Assembly (NCBI GenBank): GCA_043803225.1
Contig: JAZDKF010000024.1
Span: 1 to 55,519, forward strand
Direction: 5' to 3'
Origin: Candidatus Beckwithbacteria bacterium
GTDB lineage: Bacteria > Patescibacteriota > Microgenomatia > UBA1400 > CG1-02-47-37
Length of the DNA stretch: 55,519 nt
Below are positions 7,079-48,701 of the stretch, piece after piece (position 1 is the first letter of the stretch; each line of letters begins with the position of its first letter). The notes beneath the pieces were generated by a model that was not told the origin of the DNA, did no database searches, and was given only the letters and a program-made list of their open reading frames with translations. The position numbers and the translations under genes were made by a program.

Positions 7079-8159
7079 ATATTTCGGACAGAAAAACGGA
7101 ATTCTTTATATTGGCGTGGCGGCTGAGATTATGGGCTAAACCTAAACAGATAGCAATGGCCAGCAATGAACTGCCGCCGCTGGAAACCAGAGGCAGGGTA
7201 ATGCCAGTGATCGGCAGGAGACCTAAGTTCATCCCGATATTAACCGTAAATTGAAAAAAGATTAAGGTAAAGATTCCAATACCGATTAATTGACCGAAAC
7301 TATCCGGCGCCCTTTGGCTAATTATCAATAATCTGGCAAGTAAAAAGAAAAAAGCGATAATCAAAGTTAATGAGCCCAATAAACCGCCTTCTTCGGCTAA
7401 AGAGGCAAAGATAAAGTCAGTGTGGCGTTCAGGCAGAAATTGAAGTTGTGACTGTGGACCATGGCCAAGTCCCCGGCCGAAGAGGCCGCCGGAACCAACC
7501 GCAATTATAGATTGAATTGAATGATAACCGCTGGCTTTGGGATCGGCGTAAGGATTGATAAAACTGGCAATCCGCTGCTGTTGATAGGGTTTTAAATAGT
7601 TCCAGGCCAATGGAGTAAAAAATAAACTAAGAAACACGATCGCGGTTAACCCATAAAACGGAAGTTTAGAGGCGACTAAAATTCCCAGCCAGATGGCAAT
7701 AATGACCAAGGTACTGCCTAAATCAGGCTGTTTAAAGATTAAAAAAGCCGGGACAAGCAATAAAGAAAAATAGCTAGAAATAGTTTTTAGTTTAGAGGTT
7801 ATTTTAGCTTGGGATAAATAATAACTAAAAATAATAATCAAAAACGGTTTGATTATTTCCGAAGGCTGCAAAGTCAGTGAGCCAATTTGAATCCAGCGGA
7901 TTGTGCCGCGAGTCAAAGTACCAAAGACAAAAGGCAGGATCAGTAAAATAATTGAGCCAATTAGATAAATTTTCACTAAATGCTGATGGGATGAGTAAGA
8001 AAAGTTAGCGGTAATTAGAAAAGCAACCAGGCTGATAACAGTGAAAATTAACTGTTCCAGGCCAATGGCTGGAGCAGAAGAAAAAATTGCCGCAAGACCA
8101 ATAATTAAAATGATCAAGGCTGGCAGGATTAACTTCCAGTCGATAAAAAACCGCCTCAT
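7068..8159 (-). CDS. rodA: SEDS peptidoglycan glycosyltransferase RodA
   Basis: RWI, QPSE..K, QPDLGS, YQ..RI, AVGSGG, LPE.HTDFIF, PITGITLPLVS.GGSS. ATG 8159 preferred (avoids overlap with ileS). Confidence 0.92.
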   Translation of the reverse strand: MRRFFIDWKLILPALIILIIGLAAIFSSAPAIGLEQLIFTVISLVAFLITANFSYSSHQHLVKIYLIGSIILLILPFVFGTLTRGTIRWIQIGSLTLQPSEIIKPFLIIIFSYYLSQAKITSKLKTISSYFSLLLVPAFLIFKQPDLGSTLVIIAIWLGILVASKLPFYGLTAIVFLSLFFTPLAWNYLKPYQQQRIASFINPYADPKASGYHSIQSIIAVGSGGLFGRGLGHGPQSQLQFLPERHTDFIFASLAEEGGLLGSLTLIIAFFFLLARLLIISQRAPDSFGQLIGIGIFTLIFFQFTVNIGMNLGLLPITGITLPLVSSGGSSLLAIAICLGLAHNLSRHANIKNSVFLSEIYGS

Positions 8160-8166
8160 AGCTTGA

Positions 8167-10995
8167 TTATATTCTGATAACTTTAAGTTTGTCCCCAAAT
8201 TTTAAAGTTTTAACTAAAGTTTTTTGTTTTATTTCAGCAGCAAATTCTTTCGGCCAACTGGGCAGTTCAAGATTAATCGGTTCGTTCAAATCTGTACCTA
8301 TCTGTTTTCTGGCTTGTTGGATTTGACGGATCAGATCCCTGGCTTCGCCTTCGGCTTTAAGCTTGGGAGTTAGTTTTGAGTCAAGTTTAACCATGCCAGC
8401 TTTTAACTTGGGATCAAAGACAAGAGACTTAAGGTTAGTTTCTTCTAAGATCAACTGCTGTAGGTCTTTACCGCCGAACGATTTGCCAGCAATAGTGGCT
8501 TTGGCAAGGGGCTGGCGAACCTTTAACCTAAGTTCCTGGCGCTGAGCATGAATTTTTTCCACCAAGCGGCGGGCTTTAGCCATATCTTTCTCCAAATCTG
8601 AGTTAATTAGTTTTGTCTCAAGTTTGGGCCAGGAAGACAGATGGACTGAAGAATTTTTAGTTAAATGAGTAAAAAGATAATCGCTTAAGTAAGGAGTAAT
8701 CGGAGCCATAAGTTGGCTTAAGGTAGTTAAGCAAAAATAAAGGGTCTGAAAGGTGGAGCTTTGGCTGACCCGGTTGCGGGAACGGCGGATATACCAGGTA
8801 GAAAAGTCGTTAATAAAGTCTTCCAGACTGATTATAGCCGGAGCTGAGTAGAATTTATCCAAAGATCCGGTAACTGTTTTAAGGGTGTTTTGCAGCCGGG
8901 ATAAAATCCAGCGATCTAAAATTGAGTCAGCAAGCGGCAGTCCGGGTTCAGGTTGCCAATGATGAGCATTAGCCTGGGAAATGAAAAAGCGGTAAGAGTT
9001 CCAGAGCATTAAAAAAACCTGGCGTTTAACTTCGTTAGCCGGAGTATAACCAAAGGGAAGAATAGTGGTCGGTAAAACTTTGGCATAAAGCCAGCGCATA
9101 ATATCCACGCCGATTTTTTGAGCACCTTCATTGAATTCGATCGCATTGCCCCAGGATTTATGCATCGGCCGGTTATCTTCACCAACAACTGATTCATAAC
9201 CCAATACGGTTTTCATCGGATTAGTTTTTACCAAAACTGTCGCCATAACTAAAAGCGAGTAAAACCAGTTTTTAAACTGGCCGGGATAGCATTCGGTAAT
9301 AAAATCGGCCGGGAACCAATCTTTAGGCAGGGTAGAAAACGAGACAATACCGGCATCCAGCCAGGGATTGCCTACCGGTTCAATCCGGCCGACGGTTTGA
9401 CCACAGCTGGAGCAGTTAATTTTGACTTTATCAATCCAGGGTTTATGGGGTGAATGGCCGTCAAACTCTGACCAGCCGCTAACTGCTTTTTGCTTTAACT
9501 CGGCTTTAGAGCCAATGACTTCAAAGTGATGGCACTTAGAGCATTCATAAATCGGCAGGGCCAAACCCCAGTAACGATTTTTCTTGGAAATCAGCCAGTC
9601 GTGCATATTCTTCAGCCAGTCCAGTTCCCGCTCCAAACCGAATTCCGGAATCCAGCAGACTTTTTTAGTCACCTCAATCATTTGCTGGCGCAAAGTTCTT
9701 TTGTTAGCATCAGTCGGATCCGGCTTATCAACGCTGATATACCACTCATCGGTGATTTTCCAGACCAGCTCGGTTTTACAGCGCCAGCAAGCAGGATAGC
9801 GGTGCTTATAAGGTTTAATCTGATAGAAAAACTCCGGCTTTGATTTTAAGAAGTCAAAAATCAGCTCAGGATGTTTTTTGGCATTCTGGCCGGTTAAAGC
9901 GCCAAAGCCAGGCAAGTACTCGGCCTGATCGTTAATCGCCGGAACAACCGGTAACTTTAATTTTTTACCTAACTGATAATCTTCAGCCCCGGTGCTGGTC
10001 GAAGTGTGCACCAAGCCGGTGCCTTCTTCTATGGTAATCGGCATGATCAGCGGATCGGTAGGAATAATTTGATGCTTAACTTGGCTCACGGCCGGTAAGT
10101 GTTGGAAGGGAGCTTGATAACCCCAACCTATCATATCTTTGCCTGGTTTAGTCTCAAGAATCTTGTCAAAATCATCACCTAAAACAGTTTTGGCTAAAGC
10201 TTTAAGCAGCCAGAGCCGGCGCTGGGACTTGGTCTGCACTAAAGAATAGTCATAGGTTGCATCGACAGCGACAGCAATATTAGCCGGTAAAGTCCAGGGA
10301 GTGGTGGTCCAAACTAAAAGGGCTTCAGCTTTCCGCTCTAGCAACGGCAAGGTAAAGAAAATAGAGTCGTGAACCACTTCTTTATAGTCTTCAGTTAAAA
10401 TTTCATGCTGGGAAATGGCGGTTTCACAGCGCGGGCACCAGGGCACCACGTCTTTACCCTTGTAAATCCAACCGCGCTGATGGCAGGTTTTTAAAAAGTT
10501 CCAGATAGCATAGTTATTAGCATCAGACATGGTGAAATATGAATTGTCCCAATCCAGCCACATACCTAAGCGTTGGCTTTGTTCAGTCTGAATCTTGGAA
10601 TATTTTTCCACTCGGGCTTTGCATTGGTTAACAAATTTCTCGATGCCGTACTGGGCAATGTCTTTTTTAGTTTTAAACTTAAGGTCTTTTTCGACTTCGA
10701 CTTCCACCCAAAGACCTTGACAGTCAAAACCGTTCTGAAAGCGCTGGCGGTAGCCTTTCATATTAAAGTAGCGCTGCCAAAGGTCTTTGTAAGTCCGGCC
10801 GCGGGCATGATGAACGCCCATCGGGTTATTGGCAGTAATCGGACCGTCTAAAAAAGAAAACTTTTGTTTAGCTTTAGAATTTTTCTTTAAATATTTTTTT
10901 ATAATTCCAGCTTTTTCCCAAATTACCGCCTGGACTTTTTCCAAAGCCACAAAATCCGGCATCGCCGGCTCGTCGGAAAAAAAAGGTTTCTTCAT
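8167..10995 (-). CDS. ileS: Isoleucine--tRNA ligase, type 2 (IleRS2)
   Basis: FLDGP, GFDCQGL, WTTTPWTL, GTGLVH editing motifs, DW.IS, WYIRR.R, EG.ARD.IR.IQ..RK C-terminus typical of IleRS2. Signatures read GVHH and PMHKS. Confidence 0.96.
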   Translation of the reverse strand: MKKPFFSDEPAMPDFVALEKVQAVIWEKAGIIKKYLKKNSKAKQKFSFLDGPITANNPMGVHHARGRTYKDLWQRYFNMKGYRQRFQNGFDCQGLWVEVEVEKDLKFKTKKDIAQYGIEKFVNQCKARVEKYSKIQTEQSQRLGMWLDWDNSYFTMSDANNYAIWNFLKTCHQRGWIYKGKDVVPWCPRCETAISQHEILTEDYKEVVHDSIFFTLPLLERKAEALLVWTTTPWTLPANIAVAVDATYDYSLVQTKSQRRLWLLKALAKTVLGDDFDKILETKPGKDMIGWGYQAPFQHLPAVSQVKHQIIPTDPLIMPITIEEGTGLVHTSTSTGAEDYQLGKKLKLPVVPAINDQAEYLPGFGALTGQNAKKHPELIFDFLKSKPEFFYQIKPYKHRYPACWRCKTELVWKITDEWYISVDKPDPTDANKRTLRQQMIEVTKKVCWIPEFGLERELDWLKNMHDWLISKKNRYWGLALPIYECSKCHHFEVIGSKAELKQKAVSGWSEFDGHSPHKPWIDKVKINCSSCGQTVGRIEPVGNPWLDAGIVSFSTLPKDWFPADFITECYPGQFKNWFYSLLVMATVLVKTNPMKTVLGYESVVGEDNRPMHKSWGNAIEFNEGAQKIGVDIMRWLYAKVLPTTILPFGYTPANEVKRQVFLMLWNSYRFFISQANAHHWQPEPGLPLADSILDRWILSRLQNTLKTVTGSLDKFYSAPAIISLEDFINDFSTWYIRRSRNRVSQSSTFQTLYFCLTTLSQLMAPITPYLSDYLFTHLTKNSSVHLSSWPKLETKLINSDLEKDMAKARRLVEKIHAQRQELRLKVRQPLAKATIAGKSFGGKDLQQLILEETNLKSLVFDPKLKAGMVKLDSKLTPKLKAEGEARDLIRQIQQARKQIGTDLNEPINLELPSWPKEFAAEIKQKTLVKTLKFGDKLKVIRI

Positions 10996-11001
10996 AAGGC
11001 T

Positions 11002-11010
11002 ATCTTAACA
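11002..11010 (-). promoter_or_regulatory. Extended -10 promoter (TGtTAAGAT), leaderless ileS
   Basis: TGTTAAGAT ends 6 nt before the ileS ATG. Confidence 0.55.
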
Positions 11011-11022
11011 AAAATCCCAAAA

Positions 11023-11541
11023 TTATTCAGCTGGGCTTAAAGCTTCCAGCACATCACAGCAAAGTTGAGCGACTACCAGTTTTCCGTCATAACTCAACGG
11101 CTTATCCCATCTTTGCTTATCATAAAGATCAGCTTGAGTAGTGTCTCTTGGAGGATTTAAATAACATTCTGGTTGCTGACAAGTAACTATTCCTTCTTTC
11201 CATTCAGGGAGATTCTTTCCACCACGTTGTAGTGGAATTCTGATAAACCTAAACGGTTCTCTGACCTTTTCACCGGTAATTTGAATAAATAAATAGCTTG
11301 GTTCAATTACTAACTTTGAAACATAAACTTCACCAAATCTTGATAAAGTAAGCTGCTTTGGATTTTGGTTGTCAGCCAGAATAATTGCGTCTGGTTTAGT
11401 GATTGATCCGGTTATTGCTTTTGCTTCAAGACTAAAGATTGCCATAGCACACTTGGTAAGTTCACTTTGCAGTTGCTGATTCTGGATTAAGTCTGGATTT
11501 ATTAATTTTGGGTGTTTTTTAAATAATTCTTGAAATGGCAT
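11023..11541 (-). CDS. Hypothetical protein (172 aa orphan)
   Basis: ATG with strong SD AAAGGAGG 4 nt upstream, directly after palindrome R1. Confidence 0.75.
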   Translation of the reverse strand: MPFQELFKKHPKLINPDLIQNQQLQSELTKCAMAIFSLEAKAITGSITKPDAIILADNQNPKQLTLSRFGEVYVSKLVIEPSYLFIQITGEKVREPFRFIRIPLQRGGKNLPEWKEGIVTCQQPECYLNPPRDTTQADLYDKQRWDKPLSYDGKLVVAQLCCDVLEALSPAE

Positions 11542-11554
11542 AAAACCTCCTTTG

Positions 11555-11577
11555 CCTACAAGGAGTCTCCTTGTAGG
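11555..11577. repeat. REP-like palindrome R1 CCTACAAGGAG-T-CTCCTTGTAGG
   Basis: Perfect 11-bp arms with a 1-nt centre; part of 29-bp direct repeat 11551-11579 = 12425-12453; supplies LQGDSL* end of the 281-aa ORF. Confidence 0.95.
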
Positions 11578-12401
11578 ATATTTGCTTTAATTAAGCCAGC
11601 GATTTTACCCCAATTAGAGGCGGCTTTTTGGTGTTGAGGCCTAAATTCTATGGGAAGACCCTGAGCTAGAGTTTCTTTAAACACTCTTGTAAAATTTAAA
11701 GCGATCTGCAACTGCATGTTTGGATCTTTAGCCGCTTCTACATATCCAAAATTCGGTTTATCAGCTGGTTCGACTAAGTCTCCCAAATATAACTCGCTAG
11801 CTATATTGGCTTGTAAAAAATTATTAAAATGATCAAGCGTCGGTTCGTCGGCTTCGACAAGCGCCAAATGAGCCGTCATTGCGTTTTCTCTTAATTGTTT
11901 AAGTTTTTCATCTGCTTGTAGATTAGGATATCGTTCAAGAAATTGATCTAATTTGTCAGTCGATGGCAACCGAAACAAGTTAGCACCGTTGGTTTCGGCA
12001 ATATCTTTTCCAATTAATTTGGCAATATTTTTCCAGTTCCGGACCGCTTTTTTTGCAGAATGTATTTCGGCATAACTAATTGATTTTCTCAGTTGCTTTT
12101 GCTGTTCTTTTTTGGATTCTATAGCAATTTGTTTTTGCTTAGCTGGATCGCGAAATATTGCTTGCCATCGATCATATTCACTTTGATCAAAAAGCGATGA
12201 AAAATGGTGAGAGTCAGAATATAATTTTTGAAGTTCTTGTTGCCGGTAATGAGCTTCTATGAATTGATTAAACATGCTTAGGTCAACATTATTGGCTGTA
12301 TTTATTCTTTTTTTAGCTGCAATACAAGCTAAAAAGGCTCGATAAAGTTCACGGTGTTGTTTAAGAGGATCTTGGCTTTTTGGTCTCTCTAGCATTAACA
12401 T
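11556..12401 (-). CDS. Hypothetical protein (281 aa) with internal two-fold repeat, bounded by palindromes R1/R2
   Basis: Long open frame; duplicated motifs KQHRE/KQLRE, FNQFIEA/FNNFLQA, DPAKQKQIA/DPNMQLQIA, KAVRNWKNIAKLI/KAASNWGKIAGLI. Confidence 0.8.
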   Translation of the reverse strand: MLMLERPKSQDPLKQHRELYRAFLACIAAKKRINTANNVDLSMFNQFIEAHYRQQELQKLYSDSHHFSSLFDQSEYDRWQAIFRDPAKQKQIAIESKKEQQKQLRKSISYAEIHSAKKAVRNWKNIAKLIGKDIAETNGANLFRLPSTDKLDQFLERYPNLQADEKLKQLRENAMTAHLALVEADEPTLDHFNNFLQANIASELYLGDLVEPADKPNFGYVEAAKDPNMQLQIALNFTRVFKETLAQGLPIEFRPQHQKAASNWGKIAGLIKANILQGDSL

Positions 12402-12428
12402 ACTATTTCTTTCTGAGCAGATAATTTG

Positions 12429-12451
12429 CCTACAAGGAGTCTCCTTGTAGG
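12429..12451. repeat. REP-like palindrome R2 (identical to R1)
   Basis: CCTACAAGGAGTCTCCTTGTAGG with the same TTTG and AT flanks; 31 nt downstream of the ftsZ stop. Confidence 0.95.
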
Positions 12452-12482
12452 ATTAATAGATTTGAATTCGATTTTGTCATAA

Positions 12483-13601
12483 TTATCTCCCCTGGCGGAG
12501 GAAGGCGGGGATATCAAATTCGTCTGACTCTTCGTCAGTTTCTTTTACTTCGGTTAATTCCGGCTGGTCAGGATTGATTTTATCAGCAGGCTGGACAGAA
12601 ACAGTTGGGACTGACCGGCTGGAAAGATCTCTTAAACGCTGGCGGGTTTCATCAAAACCGGTGGCAATAACGGTAATCTTGATTTGGTCGACTAAATTTT
12701 CATCAATTGACGCGCCAAAGATAATATTGCAATCAGCATCGGTAGTTTTGGAAATAATTTCCGCTGCCTGATTGACTTCGCTCATGGTTAGGTCAGTACC
12801 GCCGACAATGTTAAACAACATGCCTTTGGCGCCTTCGATTGATGTTTCCAAAAGGGGCGAGGAAATCGCCGAACGGGCGGCATTCTGAGCCCGGTTTTCG
12901 CCAACACCGCTGCCCATTCCCATTAAGGCAGTACCGGCATCTTTCATAATGGTTTTAACGTCAGCAAAATCAACATTAATTAAACCAGAAGTAGTAATTA
13001 GGTCAGAAATCCCCTGAACCCCTTGGGTTAAAATGCTGTCGGCCATTTTAAAAGCTTCTATCAATGTCAAATTTTTATCGATTATGTCCATCAACCGTTG
13101 ATTAGGAACGACGATCATGGTATCAACTTTACTTTTTAAAGCTTCAATTCCCTCTTCGGCATTAACCATTCTCCGGGTGCCTTCGAAAAGAAAGGGTTTG
13201 GTGACCACAGCTACGGTTAAAGCCCCAACTTCTTTAGCAATTTCGGCAATAATCGGACAGCCGCCTGTGCCAGTACCACCTCCCATTCCAGCAGTTAAAA
13301 AAACCATATCAGCGCCAAACAAAAAGTCTCTAATCTTATCTTTGGTTTCATCAGCCGCTTGAGCACCAACTTTGGGATCAGACCCGGAGCCTAAACCACC
13401 AGTTAATTTTTCACCAATTTGGATTTTTGTTTCAGCCTGAGATGAAAGCAGGGCTTGGGCATCGGTATTGATAGCAACAAACTCCACACCTTTAATCAAG
13501 TTAGAACGGACCATATTGGAAACGGCGTTGCTGCCTCCGCCACCGACCCCTAAGACCTTTATTTTGGCAAATGTATTTAAATCTGGTTTGACCAAAGCCA
13601 T
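12483..13601 (-). CDS. ftsZ: Cell division GTPase FtsZ
   Basis: [16 protein letters not shown] tubulin signature, INVDFAD, C-terminal DIPAFLR. Confidence 0.99.
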
Positions 13602-13678
13602 AGTTTTTTGCCAAAGGCAAATTCAATTAATTAAAGCAGGGCAGGAGTTTACTAATTAACAATAGCTTATTTTTTTAT

Positions 13679-14947
13679 TTAAGGCAAGAAGGATTTGAGA
13701 AGTTTAATGCCTTTACTAAAAACGCCTTTAACTGGAATCTTGGGAAAATTTTTGGAAAAGTTTTTAAAAGCAGAGTCAGATTTAAAACCTTTAAAGTTTT
13801 TTACCCCGTAATCGATTAAACCCCAAGCAGTGGCAAAAGCCGGAGATTTTATTTCATCGATTAAACCGGTTAAGCCTTTGGGATAACCAATCCTAACCGG
13901 TAAGGATAAAGTCCGTTTGCAGGAAGAGGTTAAGCCGGCGGTTAAAGCTCCGCCGCCGGTGACTACAACTCCGGCTGGAGTGACTCCGCCAAAACCGGAT
14001 TTTTTTAACTGCTCGCCAACGAGTCCGAAAATTTCATTTAAACGCGGCCGGATAATTCCTTCGGTCAGAGTTTTCCTGGATAATTTGCCAACATCTTCGC
14101 TTAAATTTAATTTTTTAAAGTCCAGATCGTCATTGTCATCTTCCTGATCTTTTTCAATTTTAGAAAGGGCTAGTTTTATCTTTTCGGCAGTTTCTAAACT
14201 AACCCGTAAGCCAATAGCCAAATCGTTAGTGATGTTTTTAGAGCCGACCGGCAAAACAGAAGAAAAAGACAGAGCGCCTTCAACAAAAACTGCCAGAGAA
14301 GTACTGCCGCCGCCAAGGTCAACCAAGACGACTCCGAGTTCTTTTTCAGTCGGGGTTAAAACCGCTTCAGAACTGGCTAAGCCGGAAAAGACCAAACTAT
14401 CGATTTCCACCCCAATCTCAGAAACGCATTTACTAATGTTTCTTAAAGCAGTAGAAGAACTGGTGATAATGTGGGCTTCGGCTTCTAGTCTAACTCCGCT
14501 CATGCCAACCGGATCTTTGACCCCTTCCTGAGAATCAACTTTAAAGTCCCTAGGGATGACATGAAGAATTTCTCTAGATGATGGTAAAGAGACAGCTCGA
14601 GCGGCCTCAATTACCCGAGAAACATCGCTAGGGCTAATTTCTCCTTCCGGCTCAGCCACGGCGACAACGCCTTTAGAGTTTAATGATTCAATATGTGATC
14701 CGGAGATGGAAGCAATGCAGGAAGAAATCGTATAGCCAGCCATCCGTTCAGCTGATTCAACGCTTTGGGTAATCGATTCAATCGCTTCGTCAATATCAAC
14801 AATCTGGCTTTTTCTTAAACCTTTAGCCGGTTCATTGGCCACGCCGATAATATTAAGCTTATCTGATTCGGCACCAAGATTAGCAATTAAAGTAGTAATT
14901 TTAGTAGTGCCAATGTCAATAGCAGAGATAATTTGGTTTTTAGTCAT
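13679..14947 (-). CDS. ftsA: Cell division protein FtsA
   Basis: DIGTTKI, P.GMSGVRLE, EKELGV..VDLGGG, TNDLA, VVTGGGA; upstream of ftsZ. Confidence 0.98.
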   Translation of the reverse strand: MTKNQIISAIDIGTTKITTLIANLGAESDKLNIIGVANEPAKGLRKSQIVDIDEAIESITQSVESAERMAGYTISSCIASISGSHIESLNSKGVVAVAEPEGEISPSDVSRVIEAARAVSLPSSREILHVIPRDFKVDSQEGVKDPVGMSGVRLEAEAHIITSSSTALRNISKCVSEIGVEIDSLVFSGLASSEAVLTPTEKELGVVLVDLGGGSTSLAVFVEGALSFSSVLPVGSKNITNDLAIGLRVSLETAEKIKLALSKIEKDQEDDNDDLDFKKLNLSEDVGKLSRKTLTEGIIRPRLNEIFGLVGEQLKKSGFGGVTPAGVVVTGGGALTAGLTSSCKRTLSLPVRIGYPKGLTGLIDEIKSPAFATAWGLIDYGVKNFKGFKSDSAFKNFSKNFPKIPVKGVFSKGIKLLKSFLP

Positions 14948-14949
14948 GT

Positions 14950-15705
14950 TTAAAATGTTAAAACTGGTTTATCAAATCTTAAATCAATTTTTACTGGCAG
15001 GCTCTCCCCTATTTTATAACCAGATAAAATGTATTGTAAAGATGCAACCTGAGAATTGAGTGAACCGGTCAGATCGATAATCGCATATGGACCTTGATTA
15101 GTCTTGACTATACCAACAGATTGATTAAGCCAGGCTAACAGATTAAAACTAACATAATGTTCCTGAAGAGATTTGATTAAGTCGCTAAGATTTTTTGTTG
15201 CTAGGGACGGATTTTGGTCAAAGTTAAAAGATTCGGGTACAGCTACGGTTGGGTAAAGGTTTGGCTGATATTGTTTGGTCATAAAAAACTCTCCGGATTG
15301 ATCAAGCTGAAAAACCTGATTGGTAATAACACCGGATAATGTCGCTGAAGCTGAACTGTCTAAACCAGTAAATTCCAGATTTAGATACGGAACCAGCTGA
15401 GCCATCGGCTGACGGCGCTTGGCAGTTATTGATATTTGATTAGGAAGTTTTTTTGTTACCTGAATATCAGTCAAGTTTGGATCGAAAGCTAATAAGATTT
15501 GAGTGGCTTTAGCACTCTTAAGTTTAAAGATATTCTGCTGATAAAAGTTCACTAAAGTTGGCTCAAAAGCTAAGGAGCAAGGATACTGATCGATCTGACA
15601 AGATATCTTTTTAATTGAAAAAAATGCCAGCTGGTTTAATGTAATCGTTAGTCCAATTAAAATGATTACCGGAAAAAAAATAAACAGCAATGATTTAAAC
15701 TTCAT
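14950..15705 (-). CDS. ftsQ: FtsQ/DivIB-like cell division protein
   Basis: N-terminal TM, POTRA-like KKLPN.I.I segment, C-terminal IDLRF.KPV; located between murG and ftsA. Confidence 0.75.
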   Translation of the reverse strand: MKFKSLLFIFFPVIILIGLTITLNQLAFFSIKKISCQIDQYPCSLAFEPTLVNFYQQNIFKLKSAKATQILLAFDPNLTDIQVTKKLPNQISITAKRRQPMAQLVPYLNLEFTGLDSSASATLSGVITNQVFQLDQSGEFFMTKQYQPNLYPTVAVPESFNFDQNPSLATKNLSDLIKSLQEHYVSFNLLAWLNQSVGIVKTNQGPYAIIDLTGSLNSQVASLQYILSGYKIGESLPVKIDLRFDKPVLTF

Positions 15706-26150: not shown

Positions 26151-26708
26151 GTGCTGGAAAAGTTTAAGAGTAAAATTACAAAAATAAAGAATGAATTAAA
26201 GATTAGGGGTGAGATCAGAGATCAAGCTGAAATTTTAAAAGCAATGATTCTTGAAAATAGTCGAATATCTATTTATGGTTTCTCTTTTGAACTAGATTTG
26301 ACTGATAAAATGGTGGTGGTTTATTCTAAAACCGTAAATAGGGAAAAATTTCACTTAAATTTTAAAGTAAACCCAGAACACTATTCCGGCCCGGTTATGG
26401 TTGTTTCTTTCGGCGAAGCGCTGGAATTAAAATCAGTGCCGGCAGTTTGCAAACAGGGAAATGGCTATAGTAATCGTTATGTAGATTACAGTCCTAAAGG
26501 AAATTGTCCCAGCGAATTTAATATACCCCAAGAACAATTTGAGTTTTTGAAAAAAAATGGAGTTCCGGTAATATCACCTGGAGAGAATAATCCCTACCCG
26601 GAGAATATTAATCGGGAACAAGCGATATTAGGAATTTTACAACTAATGAATGCTAAAAATCCTAATTTAGGAGAATATGTTCAAGCAGTTAAGGCAGCCG
26701 CAAGTTGA
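26151..26708 (+). CDS. Hypothetical protein (185 aa orphan) on the strand opposite the dcw cluster
   Basis: GTG-started ORF, AT-rich, own -10 box; stop lies 12 nt before palindrome R3. Confidence 0.7.
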   Translation: MLEKFKSKITKIKNELKIRGEIRDQAEILKAMILENSRISIYGFSFELDLTDKMVVVYSKTVNREKFHLNFKVNPEHYSGPVMVVSFGEALELKSVPAVCKQGNGYSNRYVDYSPKGNCPSEFNIPQEQFEFLKKNGVPVISPGENNPYPENINREQAILGILQLMNAKNPNLGEYVQAVKAAAS

Positions 26709-26714
26709 TTATTG

Positions 26715-26984
26715 AAGGAACCTGTAAGGACAGTTCCTGCAGGCAAAGTTTCCAACGGATTACGATGGATGTATTTTGAAAGGAAAATGAATTGAGTTTC
26801 AGTTTTTATCATAACCGCTATTTAGTCACCAAGGATCTAAGAAAATTAGCCATTAAATTTTCTTTTTTTGAAAAATAAATAAGTGAAAATGATTAGGCAC
26901 CAAGCAATAAGCCAGAAGAAAAGTTCCTGAGAAAAGTTTTTTAGTTTTTTCGATGGAGCAACCTACAGGGACTGTCCCTGCAGG
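26715..26984 (-). pseudogene. Decayed REP-associated tyrosine transposase (RAYT / Y1 HUH transposase) fragment
   Basis: Manual translation: LQGQSL*VAPSKKLKNFSQEL /fs/ LLAYCLVPNHFHLFIFQKK /fs/ NLMANFLRSLVTK* /deletion/ AVMIKTETQFIFLSKYIHRNPLETLPAGTVLTG. HUH block at 26883-26918; YIHRNP at 26756-26773. Confidence 0.88.
26721..26743. repeat. REP-like palindrome R3 CCTGTAAGGAC-A-GTTCCTGCAGG
   Basis: 23-nt family member with 3 arm mismatches; on the minus strand preceded by TTTG, as R1/R2 are on the plus strand. Confidence 0.8.
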
Positions 26985-26986
26985 TT
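26960..26986. repeat. REP-like palindrome R4 AACCTACAGGGAC-T-GTCCCTGCAGGTT
   Basis: 13-bp arms with 1 mismatch; overlaps the glmS stop codon. Confidence 0.9.
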
Positions 26987-28742
26987 ATTTTACAGTGACG
27001 GATTTAGCGAGGTTACGGGGCTTGTCAGGATTTAAACCGCGGCTGATAGCTAAATCATAAGCCAAAAGTTGAGCAATAACGGTAATGGGAATAGCGGTGG
27101 CCTGCTTTAAATCAGGAACTTGAAGATGAAAATCAAAAACCGGATCAGCTTGAGGTGAGATACCGATAATCAGACCGCCCCGGGCTTTCATTTCATGAGC
27201 GCTGGAGATAATATCCGAGTAAGTTTCATCCAGGGGGGCGATGACGATACAGGGAGTGCCTTTATCAATTAAGGCAATCGGTCCGTGTTTTAATTCGCCG
27301 CTGGCATAGGCTTCAGCATGAATATAACTGACTTCTTTAATTTTAAGAGCAGTTTCCAGGGCAATTGGATAGGATAAAAGCTTACCGACAACAAAAATAT
27401 GTTCCTGATCTTTGATCAGCCGGGCCAGGGATTTAATTTTTTCCCGATCTTGGCCCAAACAGAGATTTAAACTGGCTTTGGCGGCTAAGCGGATCAGATT
27501 TTGCGCCTGAACCAATTGATGATTTAAGTTAAAACCCAGCTGTAAAAGGGTTGCCAGCTTGGCAGTAAAAGCTTTGGTCGAAGCCACGGCAACTTCCTGG
27601 CCGGCTTGAAGCAGAAGTTTAAAGTCAGATTTCCGGTAAAGAGTTGAACCTAAAACATTGGTGATGCCGATAATTTTTAAATGTTGCTTTTTAGCCAAAT
27701 TAACAGCTTCAACCACATCGATCGTCTCCCCGCTTTGAGACAAGAGAGTGAAAGTCTTATTTTTATGGAGCAGTCTTTGGTATTTTTTAAACTCAGAACC
27801 GATAATTGCTTCAGCTTCCAGGCCAAAAAGATTAAATAAGTACTGGCCGAAAAGGGCGGCATAGTAAGCCGTGCCGCAGCCCAAAAGATAGTTAGACTGA
27901 CTGGCTTGATATAGTTTAGTAATCTGATCAATTGAAGCCTGAGGCAGTTGAGAAAGATTAGTCAAGATTTTCGGCTGATCGAAAATTTCTTTTTCCATAT
28001 AGTGATGAAACTTGCCTAAACGGCTTTGTTCCGCCTGCCAATCCAAGGTCATAATCTTTAGTTTTAAAGCTTTGCCGGTTTTGATAGAAAATAACTTAAC
28101 TTTATCAGCCGTGATTTGTACCATTTGGTTATCTTCCAAAAAGATTATCCGGCTGGTATGGTCTAAAAGCGCCCAAACATCAGAGGCAATAAAGTTTTGG
28201 TTTTTTCCCAGGCCGATAATTAAGGGCGAGCCGTTTTTAACGGCAATTAACTGATCGGTTTTGGCAGAAATAACGATCAGGGCATTCATACCGTTTAGCT
28301 GATTGAAAGACTGCTGTACGGCCTGAAGCAAAGGTTGCTTTTTGGTCTTTTCTTCAATTAAATGAAGAGCAACTTCAGTATCGGTTTCCGATAAAAATTT
28401 ATGCTTTGCAATTAAAGTTTCTTTGATCGTGCGAAAGTTTTCGACGATGCCGTTATGAACCAAGGATAAAGTTTTGGTACAGTCCAGATGAGGATGGGCA
28501 TTACCGACAGTGACGCCGCCGTGAGTCGCCCAGCGGGTATGACCCAGGCCGATCGCCGAAACCGGCAGCTTGGTCTTGGCTTCACCGATCTTACCCACAT
28601 GGCGTTCCCGAACCAGGCGCTGGCCTTGTTTAACCGTAATTCCCCAGGAGTCATAACCGCGGTATTCAAGTTTTTTCAAGCCGGAGAGGACAGTTTGCGC
28701 TGCCTGTTTCTTATCACCGATAACGCCAAAAATTCCACACAT
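26985..28742 (-). CDS. glmS: Glutamine--fructose-6-phosphate aminotransferase
   Basis: MCGI, LEYRGYDS, GHTRWATHG, SQSGET, VASTKAF, ELKHGP, PRNLAKSVTV. Confidence 0.99.
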   Translation of the reverse strand: MCGIFGVIGDKKQAAQTVLSGLKKLEYRGYDSWGITVKQGQRLVRERHVGKIGEAKTKLPVSAIGLGHTRWATHGGVTVGNAHPHLDCTKTLSLVHNGIVENFRTIKETLIAKHKFLSETDTEVALHLIEEKTKKQPLLQAVQQSFNQLNGMNALIVISAKTDQLIAVKNGSPLIIGLGKNQNFIASDVWALLDHTSRIIFLEDNQMVQITADKVKLFSIKTGKALKLKIMTLDWQAEQSRLGKFHHYMEKEIFDQPKILTNLSQLPQASIDQITKLYQASQSNYLLGCGTAYYAALFGQYLFNLFGLEAEAIIGSEFKKYQRLLHKNKTFTLLSQSGETIDVVEAVNLAKKQHLKIIGITNVLGSTLYRKSDFKLLLQAGQEVAVASTKAFTAKLATLLQLGFNLNHQLVQAQNLIRLAAKASLNLCLGQDREKIKSLARLIKDQEHIFVVGKLLSYPIALETALKIKEVSYIHAEAYASGELKHGPIALIDKGTPCIVIAPLDETYSDIISSAHEMKARGGLIIGISPQADPVFDFHLQVPDLKQATAIPITVIAQLLAYDLAISRGLNPDKPRNLAKSVTVK

Positions 28743-34526: not shown

Positions 34527-34549
34527 CCTACGAGGAGAGTCCTTGTAGG
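34527..34549. repeat. REP-like palindrome R5 CCTACGAGGAG-A-GTCCTTGTAGG
   Basis: Reverse complement differs from R1 at only 2 of 23 nt; lies in the ftsI-murE gap; stem extendable via TCTAAC/GTTAGA. Confidence 0.9.
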
Positions 34550-47822: not shown

Positions 47823-48701
47823 TTAACCTAATTTAATTTTAAGCAGCCGAATTTGTTTAAGCAGATCAATCCCGAGAAAAACCAACCAGCGAAGAGGAAA
47901 CAAGTATTTTTTCTGATAATGTTTAGAATAAAAAATCTTCATGGCTGCAAAGAAATTTTGAGTAGTAATCAGGCGTGACTGTTTGGCTTGATTATTTAGT
48001 CCGGAAGCACCCTTTAAGTGGGTAATTTTCGTTTGAGGGACGTACATAATTTTCCAACCGGCTTGTTTAATCCTAAAGGCTAAATCAATATCTTCGCCGT
48101 ACATAAAGAATTTTTCATCTAAAAGCCCGACTTGGCTTAAAGCTTTCTGGCGAAGAAAAAAGAAAGCGCCAACCGGCGAATCAATCTCATGAGTAGTATT
48201 TAAGTCTTTCCAACCCTGATGATAGCGGGAAAATAGCGGAGAATGGGGAAACAGTTTTTCCAGACCGGATAAGTAAGTAAAGGCCGCCCAGGGAAACGGA
48301 AAGCCGCGGTGGGAAGCAGGATCAATATTACCATTAACCAACTCAACCCGGCAGGTTGATAAACCCACCTGAGGATTTTCATTCATAAATTTAACCATGG
48401 TGATTAGGGTGTCTGGTTGAATAATCGTGTCTGAGTTTAATAAAAGAATGTATCTCCCTTTGGCTTGACGAAGGCCTAAGTTATTGCCGCCGGCAAAACC
48501 CAAATTTTTATCAGTTTGAATGATTTTTACTTGAGGGAATTTTTTCCTAACCTTCGCGCCAGTATTATCCTGGCTGGCATTATCAACTAAAATAACTTCT
48601 ATCCGACCGGACGGAGGATCAGCCTGAAAAACTGAAGCTATTGTCTGAAGAGTTAACTTTTCAGTTTTAAAGTTGACAATGATAATTGAGATGTCCATCA
48701 A
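47823..48701 (-). CDS. Glycosyltransferase family 2 (WbbL-like)
   Basis: SIIIVN, VDNAS.D, NLGFAGGNN, LLNSD, FFMYGEDID. Confidence 0.93.
   Translation of the reverse strand: MMDISIIIVNFKTEKLTLQTIASVFQADPPSGRIEVILVDNASQDNTGAKVRKKFPQVKIIQTDKNLGFAGGNNLGLRQAKGRYILLLNSDTIIQPDTLITMVKFMNENPQVGLSTCRVELVNGNIDPASHRGFPFPWAAFTYLSGLEKLFPHSPLFSRYHQGWKDLNTTHEIDSPVGAFFFLRQKALSQVGLLDEKFFMYGEDIDLAFRIKQAGWKIMYVPQTKITHLKGASGLNNQAKQSRLITTQNFFAAMKIFYSKHYQKKYLFPLRWLVFLGIDLLKQIRLLKIKLG

Follow-up and report, generated by a model that had tools for sequence, protein, structure and literature searches.

A 55,519-nt stretch of DNA from Candidatus Beckwithbacteria (contig JAZDKF010000024.1, positions 1 to 55,519; here called the window) carries, between ftsZ and an ileS-like gene, an orphan gene bracketed by two identical 29-nt palindromic repeats, and this layout raises the question of whether the gene and its repeats form a mobile cassette or whether the repeats came to lie there in some other way. 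The gene, ORF281, encodes 281 residues (11556-12401, minus strand), and the two repeats are designated R1 (11551-11579) and R2 (12425-12453). We found that R1 and R2 belong to a family of repetitive extragenic palindromes (REPs) that is associated in this genome with a REP-associated tyrosine transposase (RAYT), a system of known kind. The history that we favor, tentatively and at somewhat less than an even chance, is that a gene was present first and that R1 and R2 are sister REPs that settled in the two intercistronic gaps around ORF281, where they would now serve as intercistronic barriers. Mobility of the R1-ORF281-R2 unit is unproven, and the cassette interpretation is partly supported. 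The source genome (908 kb, 58 contigs, 41.6% G+C) is denoted G000, and the window is its contig C24; other G numbers denote the genomes of relatives, L numbers denote loci of relatives, and C numbers denote contigs.

The 29-mer occurred at exactly two sites in the window, both on the plus strand with 0 mismatches and 874 bp apart from start to start (0.00 sites expected, based on 100 shuffles), in agreement with the initial annotation. Its core is a perfect palindrome of 11 + 1 + 11 nt (11555-11577 in R1 and 12429-12451 in R2), with GTAG in the 3′ arm and CTAC in the 5′ arm, and the 29-mer adds 4 + 2 flanking nucleotides to this core. R1 and R2 are direct copies with the central A on the gene strand, their orientation matches that of the two REPs bracketing the RAYT gene, and CA directly follows each of them on the gene strand. 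On the minus strand the gene order is ftsA, ftsZ, R2, ORF281, R1, ORF172 (a second orphan gene, of 172 codons), and the ileS-like gene. The R2 core lies 31 nt 3′ of the ftsZ stop codon and 27 nt 5′ of the ORF281 start, leaving 23 nt between the R2 29-mer and that start codon, and R1 contains the final six codons of ORF281 (LQGDSL) plus its TAG stop. No promoter-like or terminator-like site was predicted on the minus strand of the R1-R2 interval. The earlier description of a single open reading frame (ORF) with a leader of about 23 nt and no obvious promoter, whose last codons and stop come from R1, was thus accurate.

The family to which the repeats belong was counted by two rules. Sites within five substitutions of the 23-mer numbered 32, and a looser rule (9-nt arms that differ from the consensus arm by no more than two changes and from each other by no more than two mismatches, around a 5-nt loop) returned 39 sites versus 0 in the reversed genome; 18 distinct sites in G000 fit a strict pattern. 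Repeats within C47:1-9000 differ in sequence and fall outside this family. Among the 23 best copies, 19 had GTAG in the 3′ arm and the remaining 4 had GAAG, with the complement CTAC in the 5′ arm, and the GTAG belongs to the stem instead of forming a 5′ single-stranded foot. The flanks displayed weak preferences: of the 23 copies, 16 have A at -2 and 21 have T or C at +1. Comparison of these copies pair by orientation revealed identical 23-mers in 20 of 506 cases, so that the identity of the two cores, which had been contrasted with the divergence of other family members, is not exceptional; in contrast, six or more shared flanking bases were found in 2 of the 506 comparisons, R1/R2 among them, and this part of the identity is unusual. 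Only three of the 23 copies possess the perfect consensus: R1, R2, and the copy upstream of the RAYT gene. Because R1 and R2 share six flanking bases, this rare variant, and the same orientation, we take them to be sister copies of the genome's REP and not independent arrivals.

The linked RAYT gene is located on contig C47 (23328-23966). It is one of four genes in G000 that exceed the Pfam cut-off for Y1_Tnp (PF01797), it encodes the HFH and YIHRNP motifs, and its sole NCBIfam match was NF047646 (REP_Tyr_transpos) at 41 bits, under the 80-bit cut-off of that model. One REP precedes its start codon by 17 nt, two reside inside the frame, and one is found directly past the stop codon, and this four-copy layout is repeated at the orthologous gene in three more genomes of the order (G011, G111, and G090). 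The second internal REP is translated in differing frames across genomes and shows compensatory stem changes in G011; with differing frames and changes on both arms, the conserved entity is therefore the nucleic-acid palindrome and not a peptide. The R1/R2 family together with the C47 Y1 HUH gene is a REP/RAYT (REPtron) arrangement. Decayed relatives of the gene also accompany REPs. Within the window, a RAYT remnant at 26659-26986 on the minus strand (79.7 and 50.5 bits by nhmmer and 37.1 bits by protein hidden Markov model) adjoins a diverged family palindrome (26962-26984) that is situated directly past the stop codon of a 585-residue ORF (26985-28742), and further remnants abut REPs at C12:175368-175567 (110 bits) and C30:6963-7305. 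A second direct REP pair is present at C12:160441-160990, upstream of a gene resembling that of elongation factor G (fusA), where identical 23-mers are spaced 454 bp apart, a TAGACA / TGTATATAAT promoter-like module comes after each of them, and the space between them holds a RAYT remnant (22 bits by nhmmer; tblastn E value of 6.3e-6). At this fusA locus (L048-L052 in relatives), G010 retains an intact RAYT gene between the palindromes whereas G000 has the remnant only; G011 has a REP pair around an acidic orphan ORF of 59 residues, and G008 and G007 have one palindrome each in the 700 bp examined. As a separate observation, a -10-like box (TATAAT or TGTATAAT) often lies 0-25 nt past a family palindrome, examples being C47:23288-23330 and 48091-48130 (directly upstream of both C47 RAYT genes) and loci L064, L071, and L025; REPs may mark or shield promoters.

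Approximately 20 of the 32 family sites (∼60%) are found inside long ORFs in open frame and about 10 are intergenic, including one in the window at 34527-34549 with two mismatches from the consensus. The family as a whole does not follow the extragenic location typical of REPs; R1 and R2, for their part, are at gene ends or intergenic. The host genes of in-frame REPs encode LeuRS, TsaD, an MnmA-type protein, Fpg, MiaA, a WecG/TagA-family transferase, and a ComEA-like protein, and in G000 the in-frame copies are distributed over contigs C8, C9, C16, C21, C25, C26, C27, C29, and C34. When translated, the palindrome reads PTRxxLVG in one frame and L(Q/R)G(D/V)SL followed by TAG in another. All seven intragenic copies in the latter frame carry a T-to-A change that converts TAG to AAG, while R1 and R2 keep the TAG. 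We compared the in-frame REPs with loci of relatives (L032-L046 and L133-L137). For LeuRS and TsaD, relatives of other genera possess an intact or decayed REP at the same positions, in the variant of their own genome, and upstream of fusA the family palindromes of five relatives and of G000 likewise have each genome's typical variant. The RecJ copy, again in the variant of each genome, is present in G003, G011, G008, G001, and G010 and is decayed in G000 with no change in length; we had considered that an in-frame REP might be a length-neutral overwrite of coding sequence, and we rejected this idea for RecJ, where G000 holds an old REP in decay. Judging from these comparisons, the REP sites of the clade are old and positionally stable, and their sequence is kept uniform within each genome. 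Because of this stability and uniformity, the identity of R1 and R2 is weak evidence for a recent event, and the recency that had been read from it is not supported, given that family copies occupy orthologous sites across genera.

Three further observations concern the family. At stem pair 6, the non-Watson-Crick cases among the 23 best copies have G.T on the sense strand in nine of ten intragenic copies and, in the four such intergenic copies, A.C on the strand of the flanking genes; this bias could reflect an RNA-level constraint, coding constraints, or subfamily ancestry. A 527-residue ORF lacking a Pfam family (C27:60315-61898) has four diverged in-frame palindromes (PTRSLLEG, PTRTDLVG, SRTVLVG, and PTRRDLVG). 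The TsaD match in G011 (contig C19, L039) contains one in-frame TAG.

ORF281 is a strict orphan (ORFan). It matched only itself among 5.8e9 protein clusters and in a phmmer scan of 1.84e9 representatives, it was found in 0 of 40 related genomes and in none of the viral contigs, and neither a second copy of the unit nor a circle or an empty allele was seen. ORF172 (11023-11541, minus strand) likewise matched only itself. For the two proteins Pfam gave sub-threshold matches only (DUF7182 at an E value of 0.0037), NCBIfam gave no family, and PHROGs and PADLOC gave marginal matches only (E values of 0.009 and 0.0016); the ESM Atlas yielded no usable feature match, with structure neighbors at template modeling scores of 0.34 or less. 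A single-sequence AlphaFold2 model predicted ORF281 to be all-helical at low confidence (mean predicted local distance difference test score of 46.8). The codon-usage score was positive in the annotated frame only, at 0.126 for ORF281 and 0.076 for ORF172 (training mean of 0.158, standard deviation of 0.049), and both look like real genes with native codon usage. Their G+C content at third codon positions (GC3) is 27% for ORF281 (3.5th percentile of 737 ORFs) and 26% for ORF172 (2nd percentile), versus 41-47% for the flanking genes. Their common ORFan status and extreme GC3 make the whole 1.49-kb insert one compositional unit that extends beyond the 874 bp. There is no REP on the ileS side of ORF172, and for these reasons the earlier notion that the 874-bp segment was the acquired unit is not upheld. 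Tandem duplication was considered as a source of the two genes and rejected, since they are unrelated.

Upstream of the insert are ftsA (13679-14947, minus strand) and ftsZ (12483-13601, minus strand; PF00091 and PF12327), and an ATG located 2 nt past the ftsZ stop codon (TAA, TT, ATG) opens a 16-codon ORF (12430-12480, minus strand) that enters R2 and ends at the TAG of R2, in the same frame in which ORF281 ends in R1. Downstream, ORF172 starts 13 nt past the R1 core, and those 13 nt include a strong AAAGGAGG ribosome-binding site. The ileS-like gene (8167-10995, minus strand) encodes a class-I synthetase that scored 601 bits with TIGR00392 versus a cut-off of 621, and the 27 nt 5′ of its start codon (10996-11022) contain a T-run and a GTTAAGATA motif in common with the ileS upstream region of G011. 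A search of positions 10800-13000 against Rfam, at E values up to 1, returned no family. Among public sequencing runs, no DNA run contained the locus, and a small part of it was present in one RNA run (contigs, 7% of sampled words). In that run three pieces at least 99% alike were found on positions 8000-15000, one on ileS, one spanning the end of ORF172 and the start of ileS, and one on ftsA, with no joints; no piece fell on ORF281, R1, or R2, and the run is uninformative on expression, excision, and assembly.

We examined the corresponding interval in relatives for an empty site with a single palindrome or for different cargo, the check that the initial annotation had called for, and encountered both. 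FtsZ was identified in 13 of 13 genomes of the same family at 74-92% identity. In five of them (G011, G010, G001, G013, and G002) ileS follows ftsZ after 31-150 nt; G008 has a 158-residue ORF between the two genes, G007 has about 1.15 kb with a 208-residue ORF on the other strand, five of the remaining genomes have other ORFs 3′ of ftsZ, and in the last the contig breaks off within ftsZ. G011 (FtsZ 85% identical), the nearest genome whose downstream sequence is usable, has exactly one family palindrome, located 5 nt past the ftsZ stop codon and followed by a terminator hairpin and then ileS. From metagenomes we fetched 80 loci with FtsZ and examined the 21 closest, 18 of which extend at least 100 nt downstream; six of these 18 have a palindrome within 5 nt of the ftsZ stop codon. 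Three (L055-L057) are of the G011 type, with a single palindrome 5 nt past the stop codon, a terminator, and ileS, and in the other three (L064, L065, and L069) the downstream flank of the palindrome starts with CAA(A/G), like that of R1/R2, and unrelated ORFans come next. The ORFans of relatives occur before, after, or without a REP, and no REP is duplicated around them. The closest relative with downstream DNA, L054 (FtsZ 88% identical), matches G000 only over the last part of ftsZ, the coupled ATG (2 nt past the stop codon), and ∼12 further nucleotides, and then carries two different ORFans of 147 and 140 residues.

The first ORFs past ftsZ were collected from 94 loci, and the 37 complete ones of up to 330 residues, together with ORF172, were compared. 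They were mutually unrelated save between near-identical contigs, and the ftsZ-ileS junction (L018-L031 and L053-L132) is a hot spot of unrelated ORFans of 75-303 residues. Many of these begin 1-5 nt past the ftsZ stop codon in a stop-TT-ATG arrangement, which suggests translational coupling to ftsZ. As far as this comparison of loci reaches, ORF281 and ORF172 fill a hypervariable ORFan slot between ftsZ and ileS. A fast-evolving positional orthologue was sought as an alternative identity for the two genes, and none resembled ORF281 or ORF172 at E values up to 0.1; orthology beyond recognition is possible. A different hairpin, with the core CCACTCCGGAGTGG, is found directly past the ftsZ stop codon in L023 (G001), L027 (G008), and L066, and with another hairpin in the place of the REP, selection may therefore maintain a hairpin of one kind or another at the 3′ end of ftsZ.

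How R1 and R2 came to bracket ORF281 can be reconstructed in several ways. According to the history that we favor, the slot would at first have been occupied by a gene translationally coupled to ftsZ; one REP would have landed near the 5′ end of this gene and its copy at the 3′ end, or in the reverse order, either through copying by the RAYT or through local copying or conversion, with a few flanking bases transferred in the process, and family-wide homogenization would then have held both copies at the master sequence. This order of events, which we infer, is favored by ORF172, which shows every peculiarity of ORF281 yet sits outside the repeat pair, by the old and homogenized REP sites of the clade, and by the reading frames: the ftsZ-coupled start codon, kept in L054, now opens only the 16-codon frame that ends in R2, and deletion of 25 nt at R2 in silico produced a 299-codon frame that runs from the coupled ATG to the ORF281 stop. 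Several considerations weigh on the other side. Each frame coincidence would arise by chance about one time in three, the removed length can be chosen freely, and the two repeats are not mutually consistent, as R2 needs a removed length of 1 mod 3 and R1 of 2 mod 3. Under random scatter of ∼10 intergenic copies over ∼0.9 Mb, adjacent gaps would seldom both receive a REP. We know of no documented RAYT activity that copies a REP together with non-palindromic flanks; RAYT cleavage has been placed at CT or CA beside the hairpin (PMC8266576). The reading also depends on co-transcription across ORF281 and on an RNA role of the hairpins, both of which we infer. Furthermore, the single palindrome in the empty ftsZ-ileS gap of G011 is a prediction of a REP-duplicating insertion, and the favored history must treat it as an older state or a parallel site. 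That competing scenario, which we regard as possible though doubtful, starts from an ancestor with ftsZ, one REP, and ORF172 or ileS, into which 845 bp with ORF281 entered at the REP. Entry might have occurred by recombination of a REP-bearing circle with the resident REP, by RAYT-mediated single-strand integration beside the hairpin, or by a staggered cut at the hairpin base with fill-in; each route would duplicate the 29-mer, and recombination of R1 with R2 would remove the unit again. Besides the single-palindrome loci of G011 and L055-L057, it draws on L064/L065 and L069, where a palindrome at the ftsZ stop codon with the CAA(A/G) flank is followed by different ORFans, on the extension of the identity over six non-palindromic flank bases, on the like orientation of R1 and R2, which the REPs around the RAYT gene share, and on the nature of the cargo, a strict ORFan with low GC3. 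Removal of the 874-bp unit leaves a coherent remainder of 16-codon leader, one REP, ribosome-binding site, and ORF172, and the REP pair upstream of fusA indicates that inter-REP sequence gets lost or replaced. On the other hand, ORF172 is equally lineage-specific and low in GC3 outside the unit, the unit is single-copy and ORF281 has no homologue, hence no second context, R2 is positioned 31 nt past the ftsZ stop codon inside a conserved coupled frame rather than at the 0-5 nt of the palindromes in relatives, the REP sites of the clade are mostly old and stable in position, and the ORFans of relatives appear with no duplication of a REP. The two histories remain close.

Three other explanations appeared to be less probable. 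R1 and R2 might be two independent family members, fresh or recently homogenized, that are neighbors by chance and share flanks through chance plus weak preferences. Identical 23-mers are common, one unrelated pair shares seven flank bases and six pairs share five, R2 and the copy upstream of the RAYT gene have five flank bases in common, and the weak preferences at -2 and +1 contribute; however, six shared bases in one pre-specified pair have an empirical frequency of about 0.4%, both copies are of the rare type (3 of 23) that matches the consensus perfectly and are oriented alike, and their location in adjacent gaps is unlikely under random scatter, so we consider this improbable. A slightly poorer case can be made for a vestige, in which R1 and R2 are the outer REPs of a decayed RAYT gene and ORF281 occupies or overprints the space between them. 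Other REPs do adjoin RAYT remnants (on C12, at 26659-26986 of the window, on C30, and at 22 bits in the fusA pair), the fusA locus offers an intact RAYT gene in G010 versus a remnant between two REPs in G000, and the HFH-containing stretch of a RAYT protein profile matched the plus strand of the ORF281 interval at 6.8 bits, a score reached by 12 of 1035 equal-length segments of the genome, 9 of which coincide with RAYT genes or remnants seen by nhmmer. That score is marginal, though, and nhmmer found nothing in the interval besides the palindromes; the weak match is on the strand opposite to the one predicted from REP orientation, the spacing is 874 bp where intact REPtrons have 679-711 bp, neither internal REP is present, and ORF281 has native-like codon usage in one frame only. 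Very improbable, in our estimation, is an assembly artefact in which a fragment from another locus or organism, bounded by the same 29-mer, was threaded in as a loop at a repeat node. An identical short repeat on both sides is the topology of such errors, and the source is a 58-contig draft of metagenome-like origin; against this, 29 nt is below the usual final k-mers, ORF281 fits the codon usage of the genome and has a GC3 like that of ORF172 outside the loop, and its frame, shared stop, and tight spacing make a coherent operon.

Turning to what the repeats may do at present, the predicted RNA hairpin of R2 on the gene strand has a folding energy of -14.3 kcal/mol (z score of -4.0); both copies form 10-bp stems of -14.3 to -15.1 kcal/mol, and in its 56-nt context the R1 hairpin is part of a fold of -17 kcal/mol. 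Neither hairpin has a U-tract. With no promoter or terminator predicted in the interval and hairpins that lack a U-tract, R1 and R2 most likely lie inside one ftsA-to-ileS transcript. The series ftsA-ftsZ-ORF281-ORF172-ileS would then be one transcript with R1 and R2 as intercistronic hairpins. Each copy supplies an in-frame TAG that closes the frames entering it. To judge from REPs in other systems, R1 and R2 probably act as intercistronic RNA barriers and as RAYT binding sites. Enterobacterial REPs stabilize upstream mRNA. Hypothesized roles of REPs reportedly include mRNA stabilization and termination (PMC3733652). The 3′ arm of R1 is also predicted to pair with the ribosome-binding site of ORF172 in an alternative 6-bp stem, and one may speculate that this stem couples translation of ORF172 to that of ORF281.

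Among known systems, the closest likeness is to REP elements and their RAYT/TnpA-REP transposases, as reportedly described by Nunvar in 2010 and by Bertels and Rainey in 2011. The features in common are a short GTAG palindrome in tens of copies, one Y1 HUH gene bracketed by the same hairpins, REPs within the transposase gene, and vertical, long-lived sites; the differences are that ∼60% of the copies here are in frame inside housekeeping genes, that the copy number is low (about 30-40), and that GTAG is in the stem on both strands. REPs inside the transposase gene are given as a hallmark of subclass 2.4 in one classification, which also describes double-foot REPs (Quentin et al. 2018, PMC6006769), and the likeness to that subclass is one of description. 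A second comparison is with Rickettsia palindromic elements (RPEs), palindromic repeats that are likewise accommodated in frame within conserved protein genes. Their length is about 100-150 nt and, to our knowledge, they have no dedicated transposase, whereas the repeats described here are 23 nt and RAYT-linked, and R1 and R2 end frames rather than being read through. Enterobacterial REPs are join points of tandem duplications, and inter-REP recombination could likewise duplicate or delete DNA, a route for gain or loss of the 874 bp; in contrast to such rearrangements, no rearranged allele of the locus was seen here.

The proposed kinship with integron cassettes and attC sites proved less apt. 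The similarities, which extend to clusters of attC sites lacking integron integrases, are a promoterless single ORF between direct hairpin-forming sites, cargo that varies at a fixed chromosomal place, and the existence of an empty one-site state. The attC sites, however, are 55-140 nt long, with imperfect inverted repeats (R''-L''/L'-R'), extrahelical bases, and a GTTRRRY core, whereas the palindrome here is perfect and 23 nt long, and GTT is absent from both strands of the 29-mer. No match in the genome exceeded the 265-bit cut-off of the integron integrase model TIGR02249 (best score, 85.8 bits); sub-cut-off matches to this model were also present in 14 of 14 control genomes, and three tyrosine recombinase genes are on other contigs. 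There is no array, and the linked enzyme is a RAYT-type Y1 transposase, with HUH-Y1 rather than tyrosine-recombinase chemistry. Of the earlier cassette-like description, then, the repeats, the shared flanks, and the empty site and differing cargo in relatives stand, and the attC analogy, the recency, and the 874-bp unit are not supported. Palindrome-associated transposable elements (PATEs) are non-autonomous derivatives of IS200/IS605, and the like-oriented hairpins at both ends, seen for R1/R2 and for the RAYT-bracketing REPs, resemble the subterminal hairpins of these elements. In principle, a pair of such hairpins, if recognized by a Y1 transposase, could delimit a single-strand segment that is excised together with a passenger gene (mechanism of IS200/IS605 as summarized in PMC8266576 and PMC6006769). 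Unlike those elements, the ORF281 unit is single-copy, and we identified neither a cleavage site nor a target tetranucleotide.

Taken by itself, the finding is unremarkable, with a gene enclosed by two REPs of a RAYT/REP system. The appearance of a cassette is largely accounted for; it can arise from an old, stable, and uniform REP population, and for this reason a recent event is not to be read from the identity of the two copies. Given that relatives show an empty state with a single REP, there is nevertheless a real, though minority, possibility that REPs are entry points for new genes. In its strongest form, which we think unlikely, like-oriented REP pairs are RAYT substrates that define excisable single-gene units, and a REP at a fixed site, such as the 3′ end of ftsZ, is a landing pad at which ORFans are taken up and exchanged. 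If true, such a landing pad would amount to a functional analogue of the integron that works by HUH-Y1 chemistry on single-strand DNA, and would account for the hypervariability of the ORFan slot that separates ftsZ from ileS. This sharply bounded ORFan hot spot, positioned between the essential genes ftsZ and ileS in Beckwithbacteria-like genomes of the candidate phyla radiation, is a natural system for asking about the origins of orphan genes.

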